A stretch of DNA of 36,121 nt, taken from IMG/VR virus record IMGVR_UViG_2778261180_000005, one strand, 5' to 3'. This stretch comes from a virus. Its lineage: Duplodnaviria > Heunggongvirae > Uroviricota > Caudoviricetes. This document shows, one piece after another, positions 2,763 to 36,121 of the stretch. A program made the position numbers and the translations under genes. The notes beneath the pieces are model-generated. The model worked only from the letters and a program-made list of their open reading frames with translations. It ran no database searches and was not told where the DNA came from. Each line of letters opens with the position of its first letter. Position 1 is the first letter of the stretch.

Positions 2763-3761
2763 TTAGAGAGCCTCTAAAGGGCTTAAATCGAGTTCTAAGT
2801 TTTCCGGTGTTAAATCAGCTAACGGTGCATTCATCCACTGCGATAAATCTCGTTCTATGTCTTCATCACTAATGTAGTTGTTCAGATTGATTGCGTTGGT
2901 ATCATCAAAATACATTGGCTTAGATGGGTTGGTGTGGATGTATTCATTGATGAATGATTTAACATCTTTCAGCTTGCTAATCGGTAGCGTTTCTGTGAAT
3001 CCGCTATTCATTACCTTACGTGGGATTTTCTTGCCCTGAATATTCTTTTTAATCCCCATTTCTAAATCACCAGCTTTCCATCCAATGTTAAACAAATGTG
3101 AGCATTCAAAGGTGATTTTCTCGCTGGTGTGCTTCTGGTGTTCTCTTACCCGTTGCATCGGATCTTTGCGAGTGGTAATTCCATATTTGAAAAACTTCTC
3201 GCCAACACGAATTAGATAAAAGTGCATAGGGCGCTGTGCAAACTTGTTTCTGATAACCTGTTTTCTACCATTCTGAATTGATTTAAGTACACCCCTAACC
3301 AAAGGGCATGTTAACCCGCCTTGTCTGCGGTTATTGTGTAAATCACCTTTCTTGTGAATCTTTCCGTGGCACTTACAACGAAGAATTAGTTTAGTGTCAA
3401 CACCCTGATAAGGTTCAGCCAGACCTAACACATCCCACCCTATCGGCTTGTAGAACTTGCGAGCGTTTTCTAAGTGTTCTTCTTCGGTAAATCTAAACTT
3501 CTTCTTAGGCGGTGATACTCTATCTTTGCCAGTAAACTGACCAGTTAGAACATGACTAATACATGGCGTTTTAACCTTTCCGTTAACTTCTATGCAAACT
3601 TTGGTGTTCTGGAATGGTTTCTTTACAGGAAGCACAAAACCACTGTATAACCATCCATGCGCTTGACAAACTTTAATGATTCTGGTTTCATATTCGACCG
3701 GAGGGGTCGCACGTTTGCTTTTTGCGGTAAATTCGATATCCTTTGCTAAAGTAGTATTCAT
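2763..3761 (-). CDS. Zn-finger plus T5orf172/GIY-YIG-like domain protein (homing-endonuclease-like), 332 aa
   Basis: Start moved to ATG at 3761 (SD GAGGA 7 nt upstream); CxxC..CxxC-type cluster (CKCHGK..TCPLV) followed by FYLIRVGEKFFKYGITTRKDPMQRVREH. Confidence 0.65.
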   Translation of the reverse strand: MNTTLAKDIEFTAKSKRATPPVEYETRIIKVCQAHGWLYSGFVLPVKKPFQNTKVCIEVNGKVKTPCISHVLTGQFTGKDRVSPPKKKFRFTEEEHLENARKFYKPIGWDVLGLAEPYQGVDTKLILRCKCHGKIHKKGDLHNNRRQGGLTCPLVRGVLKSIQNGRKQVIRNKFAQRPMHFYLIRVGEKFFKYGITTRKDPMQRVREHQKHTSEKITFECSHLFNIGWKAGDLEMGIKKNIQGKKIPRKVMNSGFTETLPISKLKDVKSFINEYIHTNPSKPMYFDDTNAINLNNYISDEDIERDLSQWMNAPLADLTPENLELDLSPLEAL

Positions 3762-3796
3762 ATTAGTGTCCTCGAAAATAATAAGTTCACTACTAT

Positions 3797-4249
3797 TTAT
3801 TGAGAAAAATTTGTTGTAATGGTTGAAGACCACGGGCATGAGTAGTAACCACGACCGCCACCGATCAAGCAAATGGTCGGACGGAAGCCAGTAAGATCGC
3901 AAAATGAATCAGTGTCATGTGCTGGGGAACGATGCTCTGCTTCGTTAGAGAAAATGTTGGCTACCGGAGATTCCACTTTAACTTCCGGTGCTTCTTCAAC
4001 ATCTGACTTAACTTCTTCGACCACTGGTTCAACTGCCGGAGATTCTTCTTTTGTTTCTTCAATGACGATCTCAGGTTCTTTCATTGCTTCAACCAGAGAC
4101 GGATCAACTTCGTCGAATACCACTTTATCATCTGCGGTGTCTGCTGCCAGAATAAGATCGTTAATACTGGTTCCTTCTGCCGGAGTTTCTTCTTCCATTT
4201 CGGAAGCCAGTTTAGTTAATTCGGTTTCTACGAACTCGATCATCAACAT
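3797..4249 (-). CDS. acidic hypothetical protein (150 aa)
   Basis: Glu/Asp-rich ORF; the opposite-strand ORF 3873..4277 is Ser/Thr-rich as expected for an antisense artefact; weak RBS. Confidence 0.4.
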   Translation of the reverse strand: MLMIEFVETELTKLASEMEEETPAEGTSINDLILAADTADDKVVFDEVDPSLVEAMKEPEIVIEETKEESPAVEPVVEEVKSDVEEAPEVKVESPVANIFSNEAEHRSPAHDTDSFCDLTGFRPTICLIGGGRGYYSCPWSSTITTNFSQ

Positions 4250-4289
4250 TAAAGGTAATGCCTATAAGATAAATTAAGTGAGGTTTTTT

Positions 4290-4871
4290 ATGATGAATGA
4301 TGTGCGCAAAGCATGTGATATCCCGTTCAATTTTATCCGCACCAAAAATGGCAAAGCGCCATCACATCCAATTGATATGGAAGCAAGGATCGTGACCCGT
4401 ATTGAAAACGAGGGTTTACCCTTGATTTATCACGGATTCAAAGGTGAGTATAAATCAATCAATAGCCGTATTGTGCTAGAGTGTGAAAGCTGCGCAAGAA
4501 TCAGAGATATAACAGCAAAACAATTCTTACATAATCCTACTGTGTGCCCGTGTAATCGTAGCAAATATGACAACAAATATAAAAATGGGCAACCAGTATT
4601 ATATGTTATGCGGTGTGGTGATGTGGGTAAGGTTGGAGTAAGTCACAATGTGTTGACGAGAAAACATAAGCTAAGATGCCAGAATAAGATGAAATTTGAT
4701 ATCATCGAGACTTTCGAATTTCAAGACGAAAAAGACGCATACGCGGCAGAATTGTTTATCAAGAAAAACCTAGTAAAAGGTGATTTTGATATTAAAGAAG
4801 GTGCTACAGAAACGTTTGTTTATAATGAAAAAATGGTCAGAAATATAGCTAACGTCGCCAGCATATTCTAA
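4290..4871 (+). CDS. Zn-finger plus T5orf172/GIY-YIG-like domain protein, paralog of 2763..3761 (193 aa)
   Basis: ATG at 4290 with AGTGAGG SD; CESC..CPC cluster followed by LYVMRCGDVGKVGVSHNVLTRKHKL. Confidence 0.65.
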   Translation: MMNDVRKACDIPFNFIRTKNGKAPSHPIDMEARIVTRIENEGLPLIYHGFKGEYKSINSRIVLECESCARIRDITAKQFLHNPTVCPCNRSKYDNKYKNGQPVLYVMRCGDVGKVGVSHNVLTRKHKLRCQNKMKFDIIETFEFQDEKDAYAAELFIKKNLVKGDFDIKEGATETFVYNEKMVRNIANVASIF

Positions 4872-4872
4872 C

Positions 4873-5651: not shown

Positions 5652-6335
5652 TTAAACGTATTTCATGCGCGATTTAATGTGCTTATTGATGTTTTCAAGC
5701 ATCATTGCTTCGTTGCTTTCCCACGATCCTAGCGTCGAATAACGAGTAGAAATTTTATCCGATTTAACGGCAACAATTCGCTTACTCTGTTTCTGTATGC
5801 GTTTCTCTAAGCGACGTTTTGCCACCGCCGATCCATTCTTAGCGCGTTTGGTTCGGGATTTCTTAGGCTTGTACTTCTTCATGATAAAAGTCCCTTCCTT
5901 GTTCTCTACCTTGATGAAGTTGCCATTTTCGATGTTACGCATCATCTTACCGCCTTTGATGGCCTTAATGTTCCCGTGGGAGTCTAAGACCTTGCCGTTA
6001 GCGATTGGAACTAGCTTATTGATTTTGCCACCATCGAAATAGTGTTTCAAATAGTCGTCCTGACTTCCGATCTTCTTGTCCTTATCCCTTGCGCCCTTGA
6101 TGAAGATTTGGTGTCTGGTCCCTGATCGGTTCTTGTAGTTGGTATTACCTACAGCTTGCTGAGTCCAGCGAGTAGGTCTATCAACATTCTTGTTAATCTT
6201 CTTCTGGAGTGCTCTGGAAGCAAAGATCGCCCCTTCCCCTATCGCCCTTTCGAATGTATCGGTTGCCTTTTCAGACCATTGCCGTAACGCTTTCTTAGTC
6301 CTTAGAGCGTTTCGTTTATTGGTACTGGTTGCCAT
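5652..6335 (-). CDS. basic hypothetical protein (227 aa)
   Basis: Lys/Arg-rich ORF; AGGGGG SD; start overlaps the stop of the upstream small gene (TAACATG). Confidence 0.6.
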   Translation of the reverse strand: MATSTNKRNALRTKKALRQWSEKATDTFERAIGEGAIFASRALQKKINKNVDRPTRWTQQAVGNTNYKNRSGTRHQIFIKGARDKDKKIGSQDDYLKHYFDGGKINKLVPIANGKVLDSHGNIKAIKGGKMMRNIENGNFIKVENKEGTFIMKKYKPKKSRTKRAKNGSAVAKRRLEKRIQKQSKRIVAVKSDKISTRYSTLGSWESNEAMMLENINKHIKSRMKYV

Positions 6336-17091: not shown

Positions 17092-20000
17092 TTACCCTAA
17101 TTTAGCTTCAATTGCAGCAAGACGTTCACGAAGAAGTTTATTTTCTTCGCTCATTTCTTGGACCGCTTTAATTAAAAGCGCGTTCACTGCGGAGTTTGAA
17201 ATTGTTAAAATTTCTTCTGGGTTATCAAGAGATCCGACATTAGAAGTGCTAACAGCTTCCGGTAAAATTTCTTGTAAATCCTGTGCGATAATACCAATCT
17301 CATGTGCGATGACTTCTCTGTCAGAAAGAGACTTAACTTTATCGTAGGTTTTAACTTTTAGTTTATTTACCTTATCTACCGCATTTTCTTCGTAGTCTTC
17401 AACGTTAATTTTCAGACGACGGTCGGAACGAATATAAACATCGTTACAGTAAACCGACGCACTAGATGTGAAATCACCATTTGCAGCCCATGAATACCAG
17501 CCGCCTTTGTTCATATGCATCATTACGGTAGCTTGACCACCGCCAGCATGAACACCCATTGCCGCAAGATGATCAACACCCCAATGAGTTGCTTTCCAAA
17601 TTGAATATGCTTGGGTATGTGAATCCTGACAATCTAAGAGAATACCAGCAGGACGGTTGCGCCAGTCATCCCATGCACCACCAGAAACCTCACCACGGAT
17701 AAGAGCGTATTCACCATTATATGGAACACGTTCTCCCGCTTTAATCATTGCACCCTGGAAGTGATGACTAAATGAACCCCCATGATTATTTCGTATATGT
17801 AAAATACCATCATCTGTAGCCCAGATAACAGCCTTTTCCGATTCGCTGTCATCTCTAAACCAGATATGGCGTGCACCAGTTGAGTTTTTGATGGTTATTC
17901 CGGTAGGTCCATGCACGGTCAAAGCACCAGCTACATCAAATAAAACGGTGTTATCTGTTCTACGTTCAGTATAGAAGTGATAACCTTTGGAATCGCCGAT
18001 TTCCATTACTGCCGCGCGTCCAACTTCTGAATTTCCCCAATTGTTGATAGAGAATCGTTCAGAGCTATTATTCATCTGATTTAGGTATAATGTACCGTCA
18101 GTGAATGTTTCGCCAAAGAATCTAGTTTTAATGCTATTGGTTCCGGTGCGTTCAAATTCGGCTAAAAATCCTTTTGAGTCACGAAGACTTAAAACGTTAT
18201 TTCGACCTGTATTGCTTGCCCCCCAATGGACGAGTTCCATATAGTCCATAGATTGACGAGAACCAGATTTAAATAAAAGGTTGTCTTCGAGACGAGTGCT
18301 ACCATCAATTCCCAGGTGCAAACAACGAGCGGTTTCAGTACCACCTAAATATAGTCCACCATCATCAAAATTATAGCTGAATGGTCTGCGATTATTCCAA
18401 CTACCAAAAGAATCTTTTAAATTGGTAGTAAGAATATGGAAGCTAGAACCGTCATTGCGTAACATCAAACCATAGTTACCGCCTTTAACAGCCAAACGAG
18501 CATTTTCAGATAATGCAACTTCGCTATTCATTACAATTTTCTGGCCTTTACCACCAGTAATATGTAATTCACCGTCTTCGATCAAATTTATCGAGTTTTG
18601 ACCGTTATCGTTCCACCAAATAAAATCTTTGGTCGTCAAATCACCAAAACCAAACCAGCCATTACGAACATCTTGACCAGTGCGATAATCCATAAAATTA
18701 AAATGGCTTGCTTCGTTTGGTCCTCGACGAATATCAATACCAGCATTAGAACCGGAACCTAAGCCACCATCGATGGTCAATCTACGAATATGCAAACCGG
18801 TTACAGCCGAAAGCAATAATTGTTGGGTTACATCGGTATATCCAGTAGCAAGACGATAATTTTGGTCATCAACACTTTCGTGCCAGATAGTGGCAGGAGC
18901 AGAACTACGGAAGCGACGCAACATCTTTTTAGCATTTGTCGGTTGTTCGTTCATATGCTCAATGTCGTATTGGCCTTGATGGTTTCCAGCAAAATTTAAC
19001 GTTCCACGGTTGCTAAAGTTATTGAACGATGAAATGTTAAGAGCATCAAAAATTTCATCTGCAACAGGTTTTTCACCACCCAGATATTCAGGAGTATCCA
19101 ACAGGTTTAAAGAAACACCACCGGAAGAAACTTGATATTCTGCTAAAACAAATCCTGTATGTGCACCGTAGTAAGCGTAAAGATCGTAATTATCACCATC
19201 GGTTGGAATAGCGCAAAAATGTTGTTCATAATGCCAAATAGTATAATACGCATTGAATACAACACCTTTCGGGCTATTGTTGCCGCATCGAATCACCAAT
19301 TCGATAATATTGGCTTGTCCATTCATCCCGACGTTATAACCGTTACCACCAACCAAACGGATCTTAGCGGTGCGACCGTGTTGCTGTGGCATTGTCAAAG
19401 TGCCTAGTTTAAACCAACCACCCTCGATCCCAAAATTAAGCGTCTTCTGGAACAGTCGGTCAATTTCTGCTTTCGAATATGCGCCAATTTCAGCCGGAGT
19501 AGGTTTATCGCCTTCATGATACATGCGGTGAGAATATGACAAGTTACCCAATTCATCGTAGCCGTATGTTCTTACCGTATGAACCGGATTAGACCCATAA
19601 GTGAACTCAAAGCCACGAGCATGATTAACACCAGATGGATGCGGAACATGCAAGATCATTGCAATATGACCCGCCAGGTCATTCATGCGGAATGCACCAA
19701 AGTAGTCAAGATTACGCGCACTCGGATCATCAAAATAGTTTGCGGTCTTAGACAACAAATAACCATCAGTATAAGTGTTTACGTGTTTTTTGATGTACTT
19801 GCCATCACTCGATCCGTCGGCTGCATCAATACGGCTTTCTAAGCGTGCCAGTTCAGAATCAGTGTAAGACTTGTTATTGTCAACTTTGCTATGAATTGCT
19901 GAATTTTTGGCTTCAACATCACGGGTTAATGCTGCGACGTTATCCGCTGCCTCTTGCTTATTAGCCGCAATCACACCAGTAAGGTTATTGTAGGTGTCAG

Positions 20001-20613
20001 TTAACTGATTTTCCGCATAGACTTTATTTGCTGCGATAGTGCGGTCAGTTTCTGTCTTAATCAGATCAACTTTGTCATTGATTGCTTTGTCATTACTTGC
20101 GATTGTCGCGTCGGTACGGGATTTAATATCATCAACTTTTTTATTGATGCGGGTGTCCAGTTCCTGAGTTGCTACAGCAGCCGCATTTTTATTAGCGTTG
20201 ATGGTATCCGACAATTCAGCTTTAACACCAGCAAGATCGGAAGCAGCTTTATTTTTATTAGCTTCGATTGTCGCGTCGGTTTCGCGTTTAATTACATCAA
20301 CTTTATTGTTAATTTCTGCATGATTTGCTGCGATAGTAGAATCAGTAGTTTGTTTAATTTCATCTACTTTAGCGTGAATATTGCGGTCATTTACTGCAAT
20401 TGTGCTATCCAATTCTTGTTTGTTAGCATCAACTTTAGATTCTAGTGCCGCGTGAGTTTCAGGAGAAACAGAGATTTGAACTACTTCATGATCTCGGTCT
20501 TTGGTAAAAATAACATGGTCTTTAAGGTTGATTGCCACCTCACCGACCTGTAATTGTTCCGGCGTTGGCTTTTTGCCAGAAACATTAGTTCGTTTAAATT
20601 GGATTGATTGCAT
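17092..20613 (-). CDS. side tail fibre with C-terminal intramolecular chaperone (peptidase S74-like) domain, 1173 aa
   Basis: N-terminus KPTPEQLQVGEVAINLKD; about six ~22-aa repeats (KVDxIKxxTDxTIxAN); C-terminus SDRRLKINVEDYE...GIIAQDLQEILPEAV typical of autocleaving fibre chaperone domains; GAGGTGA SD. Confidence 0.85.
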   Translation of the reverse strand: MQSIQFKRTNVSGKKPTPEQLQVGEVAINLKDHVIFTKDRDHEVVQISVSPETHAALESKVDANKQELDSTIAVNDRNIHAKVDEIKQTTDSTIAANHAEINNKVDVIKRETDATIEANKNKAASDLAGVKAELSDTINANKNAAAVATQELDTRINKKVDDIKSRTDATIASNDKAINDKVDLIKTETDRTIAANKVYAENQLTDTYNNLTGVIAANKQEAADNVAALTRDVEAKNSAIHSKVDNNKSYTDSELARLESRIDAADGSSDGKYIKKHVNTYTDGYLLSKTANYFDDPSARNLDYFGAFRMNDLAGHIAMILHVPHPSGVNHARGFEFTYGSNPVHTVRTYGYDELGNLSYSHRMYHEGDKPTPAEIGAYSKAEIDRLFQKTLNFGIEGGWFKLGTLTMPQQHGRTAKIRLVGGNGYNVGMNGQANIIELVIRCGNNSPKGVVFNAYYTIWHYEQHFCAIPTDGDNYDLYAYYGAHTGFVLAEYQVSSGGVSLNLLDTPEYLGGEKPVADEIFDALNISSFNNFSNRGTLNFAGNHQGQYDIEHMNEQPTNAKKMLRRFRSSAPATIWHESVDDQNYRLATGYTDVTQQLLLSAVTGLHIRRLTIDGGLGSGSNAGIDIRRGPNEASHFNFMDYRTGQDVRNGWFGFGDLTTKDFIWWNDNGQNSINLIEDGELHITGGKGQKIVMNSEVALSENARLAVKGGNYGLMLRNDGSSFHILTTNLKDSFGSWNNRRPFSYNFDDGGLYLGGTETARCLHLGIDGSTRLEDNLLFKSGSRQSMDYMELVHWGASNTGRNNVLSLRDSKGFLAEFERTGTNSIKTRFFGETFTDGTLYLNQMNNSSERFSINNWGNSEVGRAAVMEIGDSKGYHFYTERRTDNTVLFDVAGALTVHGPTGITIKNSTGARHIWFRDDSESEKAVIWATDDGILHIRNNHGGSFSHHFQGAMIKAGERVPYNGEYALIRGEVSGGAWDDWRNRPAGILLDCQDSHTQAYSIWKATHWGVDHLAAMGVHAGGGQATVMMHMNKGGWYSWAANGDFTSSASVYCNDVYIRSDRRLKINVEDYEENAVDKVNKLKVKTYDKVKSLSDREVIAHEIGIIAQDLQEILPEAVSTSNVGSLDNPEEILTISNSAVNALLIKAVQEMSEENKLLRERLAAIEAKLG
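20010..20470 (-). repeat. in-frame tandem coding repeats within the side-fibre gene
   Basis: Recurrent DNA blocks (such as CGATTGTCGCGTCGGT...ATCAACTTT) encoding the KVDxIK..TDxTIxAN repeats; coordinates approximate. Confidence 0.6.
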
Positions 20614-26539: not shown

Positions 26540-28444
26540 TTAGAACGATGTTACCCAACTACGGCCTCTATTTGGACGTCTGGCGATGTTTTTACGTTGT
26601 GGTCGTGTGATTGGCTTAGTTTCTTCGATTTTCTCGTCAGATTGCGATTTAGGAGCTTTTACGGGTTCTTCGACAACACGGTTTAAGCTGTCTTTCATTG
26701 CAATGAGTTTATCCCATGACATTTTTGAAAGGACGTAGCGAGAAGCCGCTGTAGCATACACGGCGCAGTCGAGCGCCTCGTTCCTAACGCCTGGGTTCTT
26801 TACCCATCTCACGCCAGTAGTAGTACGCTTGACAGATTCACTTAAAAGCTGATCGAGATAATCATCAGGAACGGTGTCTGATATTTCTAAGCCAATATGA
26901 GGATTATCTTTCAGGTTCCTAGCCAACATTTCACGAAATGCAGTTTTACCCACATTAACACCCAACATAAGCAATTCATGACCACCTGTGCGGGTAGGTT
27001 TAACCGGAATGATCGGAGCGTTACCAGCAGAACTACCTTTGATAGCGTGTAAGTTCTTCCACTTGCCGCAAATACGGTATCCAGCTTGAGTGAATCGACC
27101 GTTCGATGTATCAAGGAAGCTGGCGAGCATAGGAACACGATCACCCGATACAGTAGTAAATTTGGTTTTATGGAAGTTGATTAATCTATCCCATACAGGG
27201 GATTCATATCGTTCACAGTTATGATCGTAAAAGCTGCGATGATCCAGAATATAAATCTTATCCTTTGCCACGCCCATGATTGTAGTTTCTGCGCGATCTA
27301 ATTGCTGGTCGGTACCCGCACACAAGAAAATCACGTCATCAGGGATATTCTCGATAGAAACATCTGTTTTTAGTTGTTCCAGTTCATTTGCTTCTACTGC
27401 CGTGTCCTGATCGTCGTATACCTTGCCTAACACGGTGTTATAAAATGATTGTAAATCAAAGGATTGCCACGCATGGCTAAAATCAACCACACAAGCGCGG
27501 ATCGTGCTGAAAGGTGAATACAGACGGCTGATCCAGAATCCTGCTACCTCACTTTCACGGGTTGCTCTCCACTCGCCTTGTGCTACTGCCCTGATTCGTT
27601 CCCCTTCGGTCCATGCGTTCTTACAGTGGGGGCAAATATAACGAGCGGTATCAGGATCGGGTAAGTTCTTACCATCGATGTTACGCCATTCAAATTGAAC
27701 GTTTTCCCACTCGATCACCTGGTGTTCCCCGCAATGAGGACACGGAACAAAAAACATACGCATATCACTTGATAACCATTGCTGGTTAATGCTTCCGAGC
27801 TTACTGGTCGGGGTACTGGATACGACTAATCGGCCTTCATCGCCAAAGGTAGTTAAACGGTTAGCAGCCAGTGCCACCGGATCACCTTCTTCTGAGGCTG
27901 TAGCAGCATCGATTTCGTCAAGCAATCCAACCTTTGCGGTCTTACCGCGTAGGGTTGATGGACTAGTAAGCGATACCATATAAAGGAAGTGGTTTGATTT
28001 GAGCTGGAGCTGATTGTTGTTATTAACAGAATTGCGATCATTCTTGTCTGTAACCACGTCTTTTAATGCATCACATGCTTCGATAGACGGTCGGATCTTA
28101 CCCGCGAGATATTGAGACATTTCTTTAGCGGTTGATTGTCCGATAATCATATTGCATGGATCGTTAGCCATCTGGTTAAACAGGATACCGTTTAGGATGG
28201 TAGTTTTTCCGATCTGCGCACTGGTCATCAGTACATACTTTTTCTTATTCTCAAGGAAAGGAGCATCAATCATGCCTTTCTGGAATGACAGCAATTTAAC
28301 TTTATCCCCCGCTTGAGGACCATCTACCAGCACCATATTCGCTTCGCACCATTCAGAAGGAAGGAGTTTAGGCGGTGGCGTAATATATTTGGCTGCATTT
28401 TTGAGAATCTTTTTTAATTTGGCCTTATTAGAAATCAGTTTCAT
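26540..28444 (-). CDS. terminase large subunit, lambda gpA family (634 aa)
   Basis: Walker A (SAQIGKTT); gpA-like motifs [30 protein letters not shown]; GAGGGT SD. Confidence 0.9.
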
Positions 28445-28529: not shown

Positions 28530-29132
28530 ATGCTAATTAATCAGCAACAAAGAGATGAATTAGAATTAGCCTTGTCTTGTACCGATCATGAATATCGTTT
28601 ACCAGTTAAGCATAAGCATTTAAAAACCGACTACACAACATCTGGCTTTAGTCGTGAGGAAGCGAAAGAGATTTTAATAGAGTTTTACCGCGATAATGGT
28701 TATACAGACGTTCACAACTTCTTTAAGAAGCATAGAACATCACATACAGAGTTTCGGAGAGTCCGAGATTGGTTTGATTTTGATATCAAGCGTTATTATC
28801 GAGTGGATGACGGTCCTATCTATCGGTTGCAGTGGACACCGATCAGGGAAGTGTTGAAACAGAAGAGATTGAATCACGCAATTACACGCTATCGTAACGA
28901 GGCTTTCAAGAAAGGCTATGGTGATACAAGGGAACTATTCGTTGAACTCGCTAACGTGCGTTATAGCCACTATTACAACGATCCTAAAGGGTTCTTTGAA
29001 GTGCTTCGCAAGGTTGATATAAGTCGGGGTACATACTATTCACGGTTGAAGAAGTACGGGATTAAGGCAGAGTTCTTTATGAGTATTGACGATGGAGAAC
29101 TTTTTCCGATAAAATGTAAGTCCTCTAAATAA
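28530..29132 (+). CDS. hypothetical protein with C-terminal HTH (200 aa)
   Basis: AAAGGGGGG SD; C-terminal [17 protein letters not shown] is homologous to the HTH of the 77-aa and 60-aa proteins. Confidence 0.6.
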
Positions 29133-29160: not shown

Positions 29161-29394
29161 ATGACTATGACTACTAAAGCTACTCGCGGTCGTCCTTGCC
29201 GTTTTAACGCTGAACAGATGGCTGATATTGCCTACGCTTACTATACAGCGGATCGTGGTAAGGAAGCGAAAGAACAGATTCTTAGTGAACATGGGATCTC
29301 AATCGCCCAATTCTATAAGAATATGAAGAAGTTAGACATTAAATTCTATGTTCAGATCGGTGATGGTCAGATCGTAGAAGCAACAGGTTTTTGA
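29161..29394 (+). CDS. small HTH protein (77 aa), terminase-small-subunit N-domain-like
   Basis: RGRPCRFNAEQ...GISIAQFYKNMKKLDIK; the ATG at 29167 has better SD spacing than 29161. Confidence 0.6.
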   Translation: MTMTTKATRGRPCRFNAEQMADIAYAYYTADRGKEAKEQILSEHGISIAQFYKNMKKLDIKFYVQIGDGQIVEATGF

Positions 29395-30435: not shown

Positions 30436-30538
30436 AGTAAAAATTCCCCTTAAACGGTTTAGTGATTGATTCTCCTGTTTTTAACTGTCCACACGCCAAC
30501 GGCGCGCGGAACAATTTTATTTATAAGAAGTTTTTATC

Positions 30539-30685
30539 TCATTTAGATTCAGCAATCGCGCGATCAATTTCTTCTTGAATGCGACGCTGGCGTTCATGGA
30601 AGTCAACCATTGAGAAATTCAGGTTTGGGGTCCACGGTTTGCGGTTCGGGTTTTTACGTCCATCAATTTTCTTAGTAGTGTTCAT
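30539..30685 (-). CDS. small basic protein (48 aa), candidate
   Basis: Not in the ORF track (under 60 aa); AAGAGGA SD 7 nt upstream; consensus promoter directly upstream. Confidence 0.5.
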   Translation of the reverse strand: MNTTKKIDGRKNPNRKPWTPNLNFSMVDFHERQRRIQEEIDRAIAESK

Positions 30686-30743
30686 AATTAACATCCTCTT
30701 TACAAATCTAGGTCAAATAGGTTCAAAGTTGTCAAGTGCGATA

Positions 30744-30772
30744 ATCATAAAAAAGTCATAAAATTTTGTCAA
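30744..30772 (-). promoter_or_regulatory. sigma70 promoter (minus strand)
   Basis: TTGACA, 17-nt spacer, TATGAT when read on the minus strand. Confidence 0.6.
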
Positions 30773-30807
30773 TACCCCTTGACAAGACGCCAAAGGGTTG
30801 ACCTAAC

Positions 30808-31260
30808 TTACAGCATATCTAAGCCTTCATCGTAACCGTAGAAGCCATTCTGAGAAGAGAAGCAGATTGGTGCGTAGTCGTCGTCATCTTCGTCTTGTTC
30901 ATCGTGTTCTGGGGCTTCCTGAGCGGGTTGTTTACCATAATCAGCCATAATCTGGTCAAGATCGGCGATCCCATAGTAAGAGCCTAAATCAACGTCATAT
31001 TCACGAACATCAAACGGCAGGTCATCACGAACAATAATTGCCGGAATGTTGTTGTATTGTTCACGACCTTCATCAGTAAAGCAGTCTACGATCACCGTAG
31101 GGCGACCATTACGTTTAAGAGCATAGAAAGCAGTTGAGAAATTGGAGTCTTCGGAATGACGAATGATGTTATAACCACGATTAGCGAAAACATGCATCAT
31201 AGCCAGATTATCATCATGGTTCAGACCCAGAAGAATGAAAGGAGTTTTAGTATTGATCAT
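30808..31260 (-). CDS. hypothetical protein with acidic C-terminal tail (150 aa)
   Basis: AGAGGA SD; a 6-bp inverted repeat operator-like site sits upstream. Confidence 0.6.
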   Translation of the reverse strand: MINTKTPFILLGLNHDDNLAMMHVFANRGYNIIRHSEDSNFSTAFYALKRNGRPTVIVDCFTDEGREQYNNIPAIIVRDDLPFDVREYDVDLGSYYGIADLDQIMADYGKQPAQEAPEHDEQDEDDDDYAPICFSSQNGFYGYDEGLDML

Positions 31261-31281
31261 AGTGGAAATCCTCTAAAAGAA

Positions 31282-31303
31282 AGTGAATCAAAGTAAGTTC
31301 ACT
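31282..31303. promoter_or_regulatory. palindromic operator-like site
   Basis: AGTGAA-N10-TTCACT between the putative promoter and RBS of the 150-aa gene. Confidence 0.4.
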
Positions 31304-31464
31304 ATTATTTATAACGAGAAATTTTTGTCTAATTTGAAAGGAATTGGTATTCAGTCGGCTTCGCCTCCTTCATAGATTTTGATTAAATCATCATCAAAAC
31401 GAAGAAGTATCTTTAGAATATAAGAATCTTTCTTTTGGAGAAATAATAATCCGGAAGCAATTTA

Positions 31465-31493
31465 GCAACCGAAGGTTGCAATCCCGAAGGGAT
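31465..31493. other. two adjacent short hairpins with GAAG loops
   Basis: GCAACC gaag GTTGC and ATCCC gaa GGGAT. Confidence 0.4.
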
Positions 31494-31522
31494 ACCAATA
31501 CCTTTCATGATCATTAAAGTGA

Positions 31523-31750
31523 TCTAGAATCATCTAGTAACCAGTTAACTACTATTATCTTCAAAGTGATTATTACTATCTTTCTAGAATCAGTTAGTAA
31601 CTAGTTTAAAATCCCTTTCAAGAAAATCCTTTCAGAAGTGATTCTCGATGCCACGCAGTGGCGTCGCAGACGTTTGAGAGTGAGCGAAGCGAGCGAGCAA
31701 ACTAGTTAATTCCTTCTAAGACCATCTAGTATCATCTAGTTTAAATTAGT
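31523..31750. repeat. CTAG-rich direct repeats (about 27 bp, 3 copies)
   Basis: TCTAGAATCATCTAGTAACCAGTTAAC at 31523, TCTAGAATCAGTTAGTAACTAGTTTAA at 31583, related copy at 31723; TCTAGAA also occurs at 29537. Confidence 0.6.
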
Positions 31751-31943
31751 GTTACTAGAAGTAATTGGTTAGCGCTTCGCGCAGTCGGGCTACGCCCTCC
31801 TAATATCTTTTTGGTTATTTGTTGTTTTTGGTTTTACACATGAGCGTAGCGAATGTGTTATATAATATCTATGCACGCCCGATCCCCCGCTTTTGCCCCT
31901 CACTAAGTTAATGTTTTATAAAGAGTTTTTCTCACCAATCCTT

Positions 31944-32131
31944 TTCGGGGGCAAATTTCAGGGGCAAAAATTAGATTTTCAGGGGCAATTATTGGCATTT
32001 CAGGGGCAAAAATGAGGGGCAAAATCACTGTTTCCCAGAATTTCAGGGGCAAAAATAGTGGGTTTCAGGGGCAAAAATGGGATAGTGAAATCTAGGGGAT
32101 TTTGGTTCAGGGGCAAAATTCAGGGGCAAAT
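31944..32131. repeat. iteron array, about 10 copies of TTCAGGGGCAAAA
   Basis: Copies begin at about 31944, 31957, 31978, 31999, 32013, 32041, 32063, 32092 (variant), 32106 and 32119; spacing is mostly 13-22 bp. Confidence 0.85.
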
Positions 32132-32135
32132 TTCA

Positions 32136-32185
32136 TAGTGTAGGGCTAGTGTAGGTTTGAAAATCCTTTGTTGACACTGTGTAGG
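32136..32185. promoter_or_regulatory. TAGTGTAGG direct repeats (2 copies plus a TGTGTAGG inside the promoter spacer)
   Basis: Copies at 32136..32144 and 32147..32155; related copy at 32178..32185. Confidence 0.5.
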
Positions 32186-32199
32186 ATCGGTGGTATACT
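32171..32199 (+). promoter_or_regulatory. near-consensus sigma70 promoter
   Basis: TTGACA (32171-32176), 17-nt spacer, TATACT (32194-32199). Confidence 0.75.
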
Positions 32200-32591
32200 T
32201 GAAAATTCGAGATAAATATGTTATAATATTTGTATTGAAAGTGAAAATTTACCGATTTTCCTTCCTATTGTTATCACTGTGTTAAATTGTTATATGTCTG
32301 TGAAGATTTGGATCTGAGAGAAAATCTTGTAACAAATCTTTACAATTCATAGCTCAATTAATGCTCACCGCTTTAGCAAAAAGTGCTATGCCTTTTTCTA
32401 AATTGATTGAATAAACATCAATTTGGTTAATTCGTGTTCTTCTCTTTAGCAATTCGTGCTGCGGTTTAACACATTTAACACGCCTGATAACATCCAAATA
32501 ACATTTTAACATATCTCTGTTCTAAATACATATATAAGAGATAAATGTGAGGGGTTGAAAAATTAAAAACAATCCCCATATAAATAATAGT

Positions 32592-32612
32592 GAGCGGTTA
32601 ACGCTCTTTTTT
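32592..32612 (+). terminator. intrinsic terminator/attenuator ending a ~400-nt untranslated transcript
   Basis: GAGCG gttaa CGCTC followed by TTTTTT. Confidence 0.55.
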
Positions 32613-32647
32613 AAGAAATCATTAATCCAGATTTAGGAGGATTCAAG

Positions 32648-32830
32648 ATGGCACGACCTGTTAAGTTCACTCGTGAAATCGTTTTAGAAATGGCAAAGCG
32701 TTATTTTGAACTGACGCCTGATGTAGTGATTGGTGAATGGTTTAAAGGTGAAGGTATTGATCAATCAACCTTCCACAAACTCTTAAAGAAGTATGACATT
32801 AAAGTAAAGATAACCGCAGAGGTTTACTGA
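32648..32830 (+). CDS. small HTH protein (60 aa), paralog of the 77-aa protein
   Basis: Strong SD TAGGAGGA at 7 nt; MARPVKFTRE...GIDQSTFHKLLKKYDIK. Confidence 0.7.
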   Translation: MARPVKFTREIVLEMAKRYFELTPDVVIGEWFKGEGIDQSTFHKLLKKYDIKVKITAEVY

Positions 32831-32871
32831 TACTTTGACTGAGAATTATATGATGGCTTTAAAAATAAAAA

Positions 32872-32900
32872 AGCCCCCTTGCGGCAACAAGGAGGCTTTT
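32872..32900. terminator. intrinsic terminator (leaky/bidirectional)
   Basis: AGCCCCCTTG cggcaa CAAGGAGGCT followed by TTTT; an A-run lies upstream. Confidence 0.65.
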
Positions 32901-32942
32901 GCGATGAACAATTAAAACTAACTTTCCACAGGAGTATTTATA

Positions 32943-33884
32943 ATGTTATTTTCCGCTAACTTTTTCACTAACGAAGTAACCAACGCTAAAGCAGTTATCA
33001 AATTTGGCACCGAAGCAAACAAGAAGATTCAGCCGAAAGTTGTTGCTCATGTTTCCTTTGCGCAGCAGAAATCCGCTTTCGCTGGCTTTAAAGCACATCG
33101 TGAAGCACTGATCGCGGCTGGCTTTGGTGTTGACGGTAAACTGCCTAACGGCATTCGTAAAGCAATCGACCGCGTTAAACCTGCTAAAGACGTTGCAGTA
33201 GACCACATCGTTACTTTTACCGTTAAGAACTCTTCTGAACTGTTCCACCTGGTTATTGCTGGTGATACTGCTATCGTTTCCGCTCCTAACATGGATTTTC
33301 AGGATACCGCTGATTGCCAGATCACCTTCGGTCGTCGTAAAGAAGTTACCGGAAAAGCTAAACTGAACTTCACTAAATCCGGCAATCCTTACTTTGCTGT
33401 TTTCTTTAACAGCCACGCTACCGAAAAAGAAGTTGTAGAACTGGTTGCTTATGAAGGTGAAGAGAAAGAACGTATTGAATCTTGCGAAGCATTTCTGGAA
33501 CTGGAAGCACAGGTGAATGCTGTTTCTCCGGTTGTTGAAGATCGCTTTGCTGCACTGGAAGCACAGATCGCAGAACTGAAAGCTGCACTGGAAGAAAAAG
33601 ACCAGATTATCGAAGCACAGAAAGCTGAGATTGAAGAACTGAAAGCTAAAGAAGTTGCTCCGGTAGCAGTAGTTGAAAACGCGGCTGATGAGGCCGCAAA
33701 TGATGAAGTAGAAGTGAAAATCGATGTGATGCGTGATCCGATGGCTGCACTGCAATTACTTCGTTCTTTTAAGGGCAAATCTCATTTTTCTAGTGATGTA
33801 GAAGATGAGGAAGAAGAACAGAAACGCAATGCTGCAATGCTTCATGATGAAATGTACGGTACTAACTTTTCTTACTGCCAATAA
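32943..33884 (+). CDS. hypothetical coiled-coil protein with strongly host-optimised codon usage (313 aa)
   Basis: SD AGGAG; codons dominated by CTG, CGT, GGT, GAA, AAA and CCG, unlike the rest of the element; central coiled coil and acidic C-terminus. Confidence 0.8.
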   Translation: MLFSANFFTNEVTNAKAVIKFGTEANKKIQPKVVAHVSFAQQKSAFAGFKAHREALIAAGFGVDGKLPNGIRKAIDRVKPAKDVAVDHIVTFTVKNSSELFHLVIAGDTAIVSAPNMDFQDTADCQITFGRRKEVTGKAKLNFTKSGNPYFAVFFNSHATEKEVVELVAYEGEEKERIESCEAFLELEAQVNAVSPVVEDRFAALEAQIAELKAALEEKDQIIEAQKAEIEELKAKEVAPVAVVENAADEAANDEVEVKIDVMRDPMAALQLLRSFKGKSHFSSDVEDEEEEQKRNAAMLHDEMYGTNFSYCQ

Positions 33885-34547: not shown

Positions 34548-35105
34548 TTAAGACACATCAAATTCATCGTCTTCTTCTGGTTCTTGTTCTTCCGGTTCAT
34601 CCATTAATGGTAATTCTTCTTCCTCGTCTTCTCCCAAATCTGCATTTTCGAACAAGTCCCCTACTTCATTTAAACGACGCTCGATAATCTCCCTTAGCTT
34701 ATTCTTTAATGTTTTCTGGTCAGTGGCAGATTCGAGAATTTCTAAAGCGTCGATTGTGGCGATCTGCAAAATAGTCTGCTTCACTTTCCCGCAGTATTCC
34801 GCTAGCTCCTGCTCCACATAACCGACGGGAATCAGGAGATTCATTTTTTCCTGGTTCTCTCGTTCGATGGCGTCCGCTAATGCTCTTTCTCTGCGGAGAC
34901 GTTCTTGATCAATCGCTTCTTTGATTGAAGTTTGTTTAAGTGGGTTAATTACGTTCTTTAGCACCCAATCGCAACCTTCCTTTGCTGGTACACGACGCGT
35001 GTGGGTGTTCATCGGTAGTCCCCTTTCTAACCATCGCTTACCGCCACCATTCAATGTATAGCCATATAAACGGGAAATTTCTGTAAGGGTTAATTCTTCT
35101 TTCAT
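34548..35105 (-). CDS. Nu1-like winged-HTH protein; candidate terminase small subunit (or other DNA-binding factor), 185 aa
   Basis: GGAGGA SD; N-terminal LTLTEISRLYGYT...WLERGLP resembles the Nu1/MerR-type wHTH; coiled coil; acidic C-terminal tail. Confidence 0.5.
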   Translation of the reverse strand: MKEELTLTEISRLYGYTLNGGGKRWLERGLPMNTHTRRVPAKEGCDWVLKNVINPLKQTSIKEAIDQERLRRERALADAIERENQEKMNLLIPVGYVEQELAEYCGKVKQTILQIATIDALEILESATDQKTLKNKLREIIERRLNEVGDLFENADLGEDEEEELPLMDEPEEQEPEEDDEFDVS

Positions 35106-35770: not shown

Positions 35771-36121
35771 TTATTGGGGTTTACAACATTTAGGTTTGCC
35801 AATTCGCCTGGCTAACTCTTGCTGAGTGATTTCTGACTGTAAAAAAGCATTTAACAGCAATACTTTAGAGGCGACGCTCAAAGGTACTTCAATAAAGTGA
35901 TCATGACTATTTAATGGCGAAGGTAACGGGATAAGCTCGTTATCTTCAAAATAAAAATCAAATGCGGTCAGTAAAGCATCTTTTGCCGCTTCCATCGCTT
36001 CAGCGACAGTTTCGCCCTGCGTCAACGCTTCAGGGATATCCACAAAAGAAACCATATAACCGCCTTCCGGCGCGGGTGTAAGAGTGACGGGATAACGCAT
36101 AATTTCGACTGTCTCTCGCAT
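35771..36121 (-). CDS. hicB: HicB-like antitoxin, apparently truncated at its 3' end
   Basis: MRYPVTLTPAPEGGYMVSFVDIPEALTQGETVAEA... N-domain with enterobacterial-like codon usage; HTH begins (SEITQQELARRIGKPK) but the ORF ends CCKPQ* five codons later, at the composition switch. Confidence 0.7.
   Translation of the reverse strand: MRETVEIMRYPVTLTPAPEGGYMVSFVDIPEALTQGETVAEAMEAAKDALLTAFDFYFEDNELIPLPSPLNSHDHFIEVPLSVASKVLLLNAFLQSEITQQELARRIGKPKCCKPQ

Follow-up and report, generated by a model that had tools for sequence, protein, structure and literature searches.

Which protein recognises the cluster of short direct repeats in an undescribed Escherichia coli prophage, and what does the pair do? 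The prophage is represented by the IMG/VR record IMGVR_UViG_2778261180_000005, and the window analysed here is the whole of this stretch of DNA, 36,121 nucleotides long. The repeats lie in a noncoding region between the genes for the large and small terminase subunits (TerL and TerS, respectively). Comparison of related prophages shows that the type of repeat array changes together with one orphan protein of 313 aa (p313), encoded downstream of it, and not with the small helix-turn-helix (HTH)-like protein of 60 aa (p60) encoded between the two. The features on which this comparison rests are:

31261-32647: conserved noncoding region, 1.39 kb, between the TerL and TerS genes
31891-31903, minus strand: motif present once in inverted orientation, GTGAGGGGCAAAA, with the direct array following 40 bp downstream
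31944-32131, plus strand: array in which (T)TCAGGGGCAAAA(A)T occurs 9 times in direct orientation, as three 13-bp doublets and single copies
32648-32830, plus strand: p60, between the array and the p313 gene; not the partner of the array
32943-33884, plus strand: p313, orphan protein and putative cognate binder of the array

The repeat array and the protein that varies with it

The array is real, non-random and localised. Searching the 36-kb window for TTCAGGGGCAAAA at ≤2 mismatches returned 10 matches, all within 31891-32131, compared with a chance expectation of 1.28 ± 1.02 matches in dinucleotide-preserving shuffles; a count of 10 was reached in 0 of 100 shuffles. An earlier reading made from the letters alone (the sequence-only reading) had described about ten direct 13-bp copies. 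Ten matches are indeed present, but only nine are direct and the tenth is inverted. The direct copies start at 31944, 31957, 31978, 31999, 32012, 32042, 32064, 32106 and 32119, giving start-to-start spacings of 13, 21, 21, 13, 30, 22, 42 and 13 bp, and the motif core AGGGGCAA(A) is invariant among the copies in the window. The inverted copy is separated from the direct array by an AT-rich spacer, and AT-rich DNA is found on both sides of the array.

A pattern scan recovered the array in 15 IMG/VR proviruses, and alignment of these with the window showed that the whole noncoding region is highly conserved. To compare arrays with neighbouring genes, 45 usable related loci were tabulated, corresponding to about 33 distinct prophages (some contigs were fetched twice; the contigs L068 and L069 were too short to show context). 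The GGGGCAA array of the window is kept in about 20 distinct related prophages and its copy number varies only by the loss of whole units. Some relatives diverge exactly at the 3' end of the array, with a different promoter, leader and 60-aa cassette following the same array; others keep the left part of the noncoding region and carry a different array in the same slot. Each array type was accompanied by its own type of protein, encoded about 0.8 kb downstream in the slot after the 60-aa gene:

Array type AGGGGCAAA (GGGGCAA): 6-9 copies; 32 loci; a p313 homolog, 92-100% identical, in 32 of 32
Array type GTGTAGG: 6-9 copies (about 7-10 of (TA)GTGTAGG in L042); 11 loci; a 328-341-aa protein in 11 of 11
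Array type NGGGGA: 16-17 copies, mostly 11 bp apart (L041); 2 loci; a 333/337-aa protein in 2 of 2

No mismatched pair of array and partner occurred among the 45 loci, and p313-type genes are specifically coupled to the array. The sequence-only reading had suggested searching related prophages for conservation of the array and its neighbouring gene, and that search found the array kept, always together with a p313 homolog. Other genes of the neighbourhood, namely those for p60, the 150-aa protein p150, Rha, the p60 paralogs p77 and p200, TerS and TerL (two alleles), assort independently of array type. The p60 alleles fall into identity classes of 97-100, 90-93, 83, 80 and 55-58%, and the 97%, 90-93% and 55-58% classes are each found with both GGGGCAA and GTGTAGG arrays. 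Equally, TerS proteins with identical N-terminal 80 residues occur with different arrays (GGGGCAA and GTGTAGG; GGGGCAA and NGGGGA). Because p60 and TerS assort independently, neither determines the array type. Among the binders put forward in the sequence-only reading, the 313-aa protein thus co-varies with the array whereas the 60-aa HTH protein and its paralogs do not. As far as the compared loci go, it is the array type, rather than the neighbouring small HTH gene, that is the informative marker for classifying these prophages.

Array and partner have been kept matched across about 0.8 kb of freely recombining DNA, and of all the observations this speaks most strongly for a functional site/protein pair. 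The array and p313 are very probably a binding site and its binding protein, and we infer from the co-variation that p313 binds the array physically. A diverged prophage in ycdX (L067) bears on the motif itself. The partner in L067, P0124, shows about 50% identity in the N-domain and 47% over the whole alignment, and the L067 spacers cannot be aligned to those of the window. Nevertheless, AGGGGCAAAAA is retained in L067 in a window-like layout, seven times direct and once inverted, the inverted copy (TTTGCCCCTG at 4872) again lying upstream of the array. Because the AGGGGCAAA core and the layout were kept while the spacers drifted, the array motif is under selection. The L041 array is also preceded by inverted copies, in this case of NGGGGA.

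The partners of the three array types have a common organisation, in which divergent N-terminal ~170 residues are followed by a coiled coil and then an acidic stretch, with related motifs at the C-terminus:

p313, layout: basic N-domain (residues ~1-170), coiled coil (~181-236), acidic C-terminal region with a conserved end motif
p313 (GGGGCAA): residues 1-160, net charge +8, isoelectric point (pI) 9.8; residue 161 to end, net charge -24
333-aa partner (GTGTAGG): residues 1-160, net charge +11, pI 9.8; residue 161 to end, net charge -31
337-aa partner (NGGGGA): residues 1-160, net charge +1, pI 7.8; residue 161 to end, net charge -18

The N-domain of p313 was modelled by AlphaFold2 with a per-residue confidence (pLDDT) of 70-88. 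Neither p313 nor the partners of the other array types gave a sequence match in Pfam, PHROG or PDB, and fold searches, which returned no match, were uninformative. Relatives of p313 came to 12 representatives among 1.84 billion proteins, and its homologues among 120 listed were only near-identical E. coli 'hypothetical proteins'. Matches of P0130 and P0132 to p313 residues 100-158 were set aside because they come from repeats of very large, unrelated proteins. P0131 has the same coiled coil but bears, in place of the N-domain, an ORF6N domain, which is predicted to bind DNA in phages; in L093, a relative further removed, the partner's slot behind the p60-like gene encodes a Rha-family protein with a coiled coil. 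The C-termini of the partners mostly end in -AA (AYAA, DFAA, RRAA, LKAA and RKAA in the 333-aa protein of L042, the 337-aa protein of L041, P0124, P0128 and P0131). These ends resemble ssrA-like ClpXP degrons and may reflect proteolytic control; p313 itself ends in SYCQ.

Other accounts of the repeats were rejected. A CRISPR-like array does not fit units of 13 bp with gaps of 0-29 bp, and coding repeats do not fit overlapping 40- and 49-aa open reading frames (ORFs) that are broken by unit deletions in relatives. A site for a host factor was rejected on the ground that the motif changes along with the phage's own protein. Elsewhere, the 12-mer TTCAGGGGCAAA was seen repeated at short spacing in 16 unrelated contigs from genomes and metagenome-assembled genomes (L017-L032). 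They were discarded as prophage relatives: none of the 16 is this prophage, and the two that were translated (L023 and L030) are pentapeptide-repeat genes, whose ANLSG/ANFRG repeats have a 15-nt period and resemble the motif by coincidence.

Promoters, leader and hairpins around the array

Between the array and the p313 gene, the noncoding region and its surroundings contain a second class of repeat and the predicted signals for rightward transcription:

32136-32155, plus strand: two exact copies of TAGTGTAGG, at 32136 and 32147, 11 bp apart
32171-32199, plus strand: predicted promoter P1, TTGACA-17-TATACT, 11/12 consensus, with a TG extension
32199-32227, plus strand: predicted promoter P2, TTGAAA-17-TATAAT, 11/12 consensus, with a TG extension
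32228-32612, plus strand: untranslated leader from P1/P2, about 390 nt, with a fold z-score of -5.8 against shuffled controls
32592-32606: hairpin of a predicted intrinsic terminator, followed by a T-run, 35 nt before the 60-aa gene
32869-32900: second predicted terminator, bidirectional-looking, between the 60-aa and 313-aa genes

The two TAGTGTAGG repeats after the array and the near-perfect sigma70 promoter P1 had both been seen in the sequence-only reading, and both hold. Its third TAGTGTAGG copy, placed in the spacer of the promoter, does not, as only the 7-mer core GTGTAGG is common there (32179-32185), and it had missed the second tandem promoter, P2. TAGTGTAGG is the motif of the array (6-9 copies) in sister prophages of another specificity type. 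A 20-mer, TAGTGTAGGGCTAGTGTAGG, is identical in L067, and the TAGTGTAGG copies are absent from GGGGCAA-type prophages with the alternative promoter cassette. Judged from these alignments, the TAGTGTAGG repeats are a class of site separate from the array motif and belong to one kind of promoter cassette.

P1 and P2, predicted by consensus match, both face away from the array, and equivalent predicted promoters are present in relatives (12/12 consensus in L067 and 10/12 in L042). About 35-40 bp separate the array from the main promoter in three cassettes, including those of L060 and L067, and about 200 bp in the alternative cassette. Neither the array nor either of its ends runs into a predicted promoter, and the -35, spacer and -10 of each are free of the array motif. 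On the transcribed (plus) strand of the leader there is no ORF longer than 31 aa. The terminator hairpin at the end of the leader is kept in relatives with different stems (GAGCG/CGCTC in the window, GAGC/GCTC in L041 and L042). Because two predicted terminators intervene, expression of p313 from P1/P2 would need read-through. This layout of leader and terminators suggests a regulatory or priming RNA, or control by antitermination.

To the left of the array, the noncoding region contains further elements:

31261-31890: promoter and leader of p150, CTAG palindromic repeats, hairpins and AT-rich stretches

Six to eight short GC-rich stem-loops, with GNA triloops closed by C:G, are scattered within 31340-31880, some on each strand (examples at 31482-31494, 31648-31660, 31685-31691, 31774-31798 and 31844-31852), and equivalents are found in L042, L067 and L093. 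The GNA-triloop type, which includes GCGAAGC, is a stable DNA mini-hairpin. Compensatory changes have preserved the stems: one hairpin reads GCCAC-GCA-GTGGC in the window, GTCCC-GTA-GGGAC in L067 and ACGCC-GTA-GGCGT in L042, and a second reads, in the same order, GGGC-TAC-GCCC, GGCC-TAC-GGCC and CGGC-TAC-GCCG. The hairpins could be single-strand priming signals, RNA structures of the leftward leader, or protein sites. CTAG-containing repeats were also observed in 31523-31760 (TCTAGAATCATCTAGTAAC at 31523, 31583, 31715 and 31725; GTTACTAGAA at 31750), and the corresponding stretch of L067 has TTCTAGAA palindromes. Another regulator, perhaps a small HTH paralog or Rha, probably uses these repeats as operators. 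An Rfam search of 30500-33000 found no family.

Possible functions of the array and its partner

The sequence-only reading had likened the array to an iteron origin, a partition centromere or a multi-site operator. Its underlying idea of a multi-copy protein site is backed by conservation and co-variation, whereas the parC-like version lacks its defining parts. As for function, we tentatively prefer the reading in which the array is the lytic replication origin of the phage and p313 is the initiator, a role that we infer from the layout of the locus and the content of the prophage. Several copies of p313, joined via the coiled coil, would place their basic N-terminal domains on the nine direct AGGGGCAAA sites and the inverted one, giving one large nucleoprotein complex. 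This complex would mark the lytic origin and open or remodel the adjacent AT-rich DNA, and the acidic C-terminal tail would recruit host replication proteins. Negative supercoiling from strong promoters firing outward on both sides would assist the opening, since under the twin-domain model a region between strong divergent promoters should be kept negatively supercoiled. The structured untranslated RNA from P1/P2 may assist as well.

An origin is favoured, in the first place, because the phage must have an origin and an initiator and the prophage offers no other candidate for the latter. Pfam and PHROG scans of 30 window ORFs detected no replication initiator, helicase, primase, partition NTPase or cI/cro-type repressor, in agreement with the sequence-only reading, which had recognised no initiator, partition ATPase or cI/cro repressor. 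The structural-block ORFs outside the scan are annotated as tail, capsid or hypothetical proteins in the RefSeq copy. The origin is also favoured because the cognate motif overlaps no predicted promoter and its distance to the promoter varies between cassettes, because small DNA-type hairpins are kept by compensatory change, and because easily melted AT-rich DNA abuts the array. In the alternative cassette, the abutting block is 80-86% AT and includes the 40-mer that ranks lowest or second lowest in stability across the region. Two predicted terminators precede the p313 gene, as expected for a delayed lytic function. Precedent favours an origin too, as phage origins have been described in noncoding regions, including prophage ones, that depend on RNA rather than on a Rep protein (PMC7157519).

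Another reason is the presence of DnaA boxes next to the partner gene of L067. Three perfect boxes (TTATCCACA), compared with 0.1 expected, lie within 5692-5859 of that locus, between the p60 and P0124 genes and about 560 bp from the L067 array. The same L067 segment was also seen to hold two TTAAAAATCAAT repeats and an inverted repeat, and looks like an inserted DnaA-dependent module.

The domain logic of p313, lastly, parallels that of lambda O, in which a variable iteron-binding N-domain is combined with a conserved partner-binding C-domain. In lambdoid ori/O pairs (lambda, phi80, P22 gene 18), as here, repeated initiator sites adjoin an AT-rich segment, the protein joins a variable N-terminal site-recognition domain to a more conserved C-terminal partner-binding part, and its gene lies in a terminator-controlled early operon. 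Related lambdoid phages also carry different matched types of site and N-domain, as do the three array types here, with no mismatch at 45 loci. However, p313 has no Phage_rep_O or any initiator similarity, and no P or DnaB-loader analogue is recognisable in this prophage. The lambda origin lies inside O and has four 19-bp iterons with dyad symmetry, whereas here the repeats are short, direct and 9-17 in number, and another gene separates them from the p313 gene, 0.8 kb further downstream.

Iteron plasmids of the Rep_3 kind (P1 oriR/RepA, F RepE, pSC101, R6K) similarly have direct repeats beside AT-rich DNA and the promoter of the binder's operon, a binder of about 300 aa and an inverted copy nearby. 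They differ from this locus in that the partner here has no Rep_3 or winged-helix signature, the window has no DnaA boxes, the element is an integrated prophage and the inverted copy does not overlap a promoter. In the ori/Rep systems of Staphylococcus aureus pathogenicity islands (SaPIs), the gene for the initiator adjoins a noncoding stretch in which short iterons flank AT-rich DNA, and related elements exchange matching specificity types; SaPI Rep, however, is a helicase with a recognisable domain, whereas p313 has no NTPase domain.

Several points weigh against an origin. A DnaA-box scan found no enrichment in the window, and DnaA boxes were found in only one relative, L067. The core motif, at 8-11 bp, is short compared with the 17-22 bp of classical iterons. 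The Rha-family protein in the L093 slot and the ORF6N domain of P0131 favour a regulatory role instead, as the ORF6N and Rha families are usually annotated as transcriptional regulators or antirepressors. A repressor/operator (immunity) pair would give identical co-variation. Furthermore, the loci that show the co-variation are not phylogenetically independent, several having been fetched twice, and binding and replication are both deduced from sequence.

With slightly more reserve than the origin itself, we suggest that p313 and its sisters might be an undescribed family of modular sequence-specific DNA-binding proteins, with an N-domain like no known DNA-binding fold, which together with their exchangeable arrays form an origin/initiator or a replication-incompatibility determinant. 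The principle of a repeat array with a cognate multimeric binder of exchangeable specificity is familiar; what would be new is the protein family and the uncharacterised E. coli phage lineage that carries it. Temperate phages of E. coli are the textbook case for origins and switches, yet this lineage carries none of the known modules. An orphan family with exchangeable arrays offers a testable handle on replication or early-gene control, and may bring to light a new DNA-recognition domain whose natural specificities, at least three, would make useful orthogonal DNA-binding parts. If the array is an origin, it would represent a new origin-recognition system in the phages of E. coli, the best-studied bacterial host.

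The main alternative, somewhat less likely, is that the array is a multi-site operator. Here p313 would be an autorepressor, immunity repressor or switch protein that coats or wraps the array and controls the p60-p313 operon rightward and possibly p150-Rha leftward, and the three array/protein types would be heteroimmune specificities. Two near-consensus promoters leading to p313's own gene follow the end of the array at about 40 bp, a spacing (~35-40 bp) repeated in L060 and L067, and consensus promoters in a prophage need repression, not activation. Set against this, the cognate GGGGCAA copies leave the -35, spacer and -10 of every predicted promoter free, and the separation of about 200 bp in the alternative cassette means that the geometry is not conserved. 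The GTGTAGG copies do flank P1 and enter its spacer. Type-specific site/protein pairs within conserved flanks are a classic signature of immunity regions, and the ORF6N (P0131) and Rha-family (L093) domains stand at the equivalent position. However, 9-17 direct sites are far above the number in typical operators, and a gene behind two terminators is odd for the maintenance of lysogeny. The palindromic CTAG sites and the three small HTH paralogs could form a conventional switch instead, and two prophages of the same array type are found in one genome, which is a weak point against an immunity role. When cI/Cro immunity was considered, no HTH_3/Peptidase_S24-type repressor was found, and the array consists of direct repeats without promoter overlap.

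The Mu repressor, P2 Cox and 186 Apl also bind direct-repeat arrays, which lie between divergent early units of temperate phages, and Mu c combines an N-terminal DNA-binding domain with a central multimerisation region and a regulatory C-terminal tail, much as p313 does. Yet the sites of these proteins overlap the promoters that they regulate, whereas the cognate motif here does not, and there is no similarity of sequence or fold. Cox and Apl are about 80-90 aa long, and the small protein of this locus, p60, does not co-vary with the array.

It is improbable that the array is a centromere-like, pairing (handcuff) or copy-control site bound by p313, in the manner of parC/ParR, the pSM19035 omega heptads or P1 incA. 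R1 parC and the heptads are likewise 7 to ≥10 short direct repeats beside a promoter, partly at helical-turn spacing, which recalls the 11 bp of L041 and the 21-22 bp of the window, and they are bound cooperatively by the product of the downstream operon, as we propose for p313, whose coiled coil could bridge DNA. On the other hand, no ParA, ParM or TubZ-type NTPase motor was found in the operon, which unlike parMRC encodes only p60 and p313, or among the scanned genes of the prophage, and the partner is not a small ribbon-helix-helix (RHH) or HTH ParB-type protein. The element integrates by a serine recombinase and all 63 matching places in complete E. coli genomes are chromosomal, none being on a plasmid, so that plasmid-type partition would have no obvious use. 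The type II (parC-like) partition proposed in the sequence-only reading is accordingly not supported: there is neither a ParM or other ATPase nor an RHH ParR, and PLSDB gave no match.

A packaging recognition site (cosB- or pac-like) bound by the small terminase subunit is very improbable. In its favour, TerS and TerL are encoded on either side of the noncoding region, the succession of inverted copy, AT-rich spacer and direct copies recalls R3-I1-R2-R1 of lambda cosB, and p313 is organised as small terminases generally are, with a DNA-binding N-domain first, an oligomerisation region next and a tail at the C-terminus. Against it, TerS proteins with the same N-terminal 80 residues accompany different array types, TerL alleles assort independently of them, and a Nu1-like TerS with its own upstream noncoding region is already encoded at 34548-35105.

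The prophage and its other genes

The window is an E. coli prophage of about 35 kb with 41% GC. Besides the features given above, the following genes were located:

995-2689: large serine recombinase
26540-28444: gpA-type large terminase subunit, TerL (lambda-type terminase)
28530-29132: p200, 200-aa paralog with a p60-like C-terminus
29161-29394: p77, 77-aa paralog
34548-35105: Nu1-like small terminase subunit, TerS (phrog_57, E 6e-10)

Identical copies are flanked by the E. coli loci efeUOB-phoH-pga-ghrA-ycdX or hicAB-yncJ-rlhA. The copy in the window is inserted in hicB, and relatives are inserted in ycdX; the last ORF of the window (35771-36121) corresponds to the disrupted hicB found beside the same prophage in strains H2 and rl0044. 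The family is low in GC for E. coli and integrates within ycdX or hicB via the large serine recombinase. Strain BS74R-D carries two copies of the prophage, both of the GGGGCAA/p313 type. The noncoding region was matched in 57 of 5,426 complete E. coli genomes (about 1%) and is unannotated in nearly all of them. The 2.5-kb region had no DNA match among INPHARED phages or PLSDB plasmids, tblastn of p313 and p200 against phages gave no match, and the sole match of the TerS query among phages was a weak one, to phage DCP80. Literature searches on the integration sites and on the motif found nothing relevant.

The 6-kb block from TerL to TerS encodes p200, p77, a Rha-family protein, a 51-aa ORF (at the position of which a 110-aa gene is annotated in some relatives) and p150, followed by the noncoding region, p60 and p313. 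TerS is located at the extreme right end of the prophage, 6 kb from TerL, with early genes between them that are oppositely oriented. p200, p77 and p60 have in common a C-terminal HTH-like segment (...S/T-F/Y-x-K/R-L/M-x-K-K-Y/L-D/G-I-K...) and an N-terminal R-P-x-K/R-F motif, and none of them has a Pfam match. From these motifs, they look like a small paralogous DNA-binding family and are candidates for switch regulators or a recombination directionality factor.

The prophage also carries lysis genes and genes for a protease/capsid fusion, a tail tip protein of the lambda J type and a portal protein, the last recognised through a Pfam Phage_portal_2 match to its counterpart in sister prophages. 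A variable cargo segment (2763-4871) separates the recombinase gene from the lysis genes; its products in the window are an endonuclease-like protein of 379 aa (phrog_681) and a CapR-domain protein of 197 aa. The cargo of KSC64 (L040, 10712-14101) comprises a GIY-YIG nuclease and a DEAD/DEAH helicase, and the segment looks like a hotspot for anti-phage defence. A 1173-aa tail-fibre-like protein (17092-20613) combines a Gp34 trimerisation domain with a Peptidase_S74 chaperone domain; its gene is placed between the head and tail-tube genes, which is unusual for a fibre gene.

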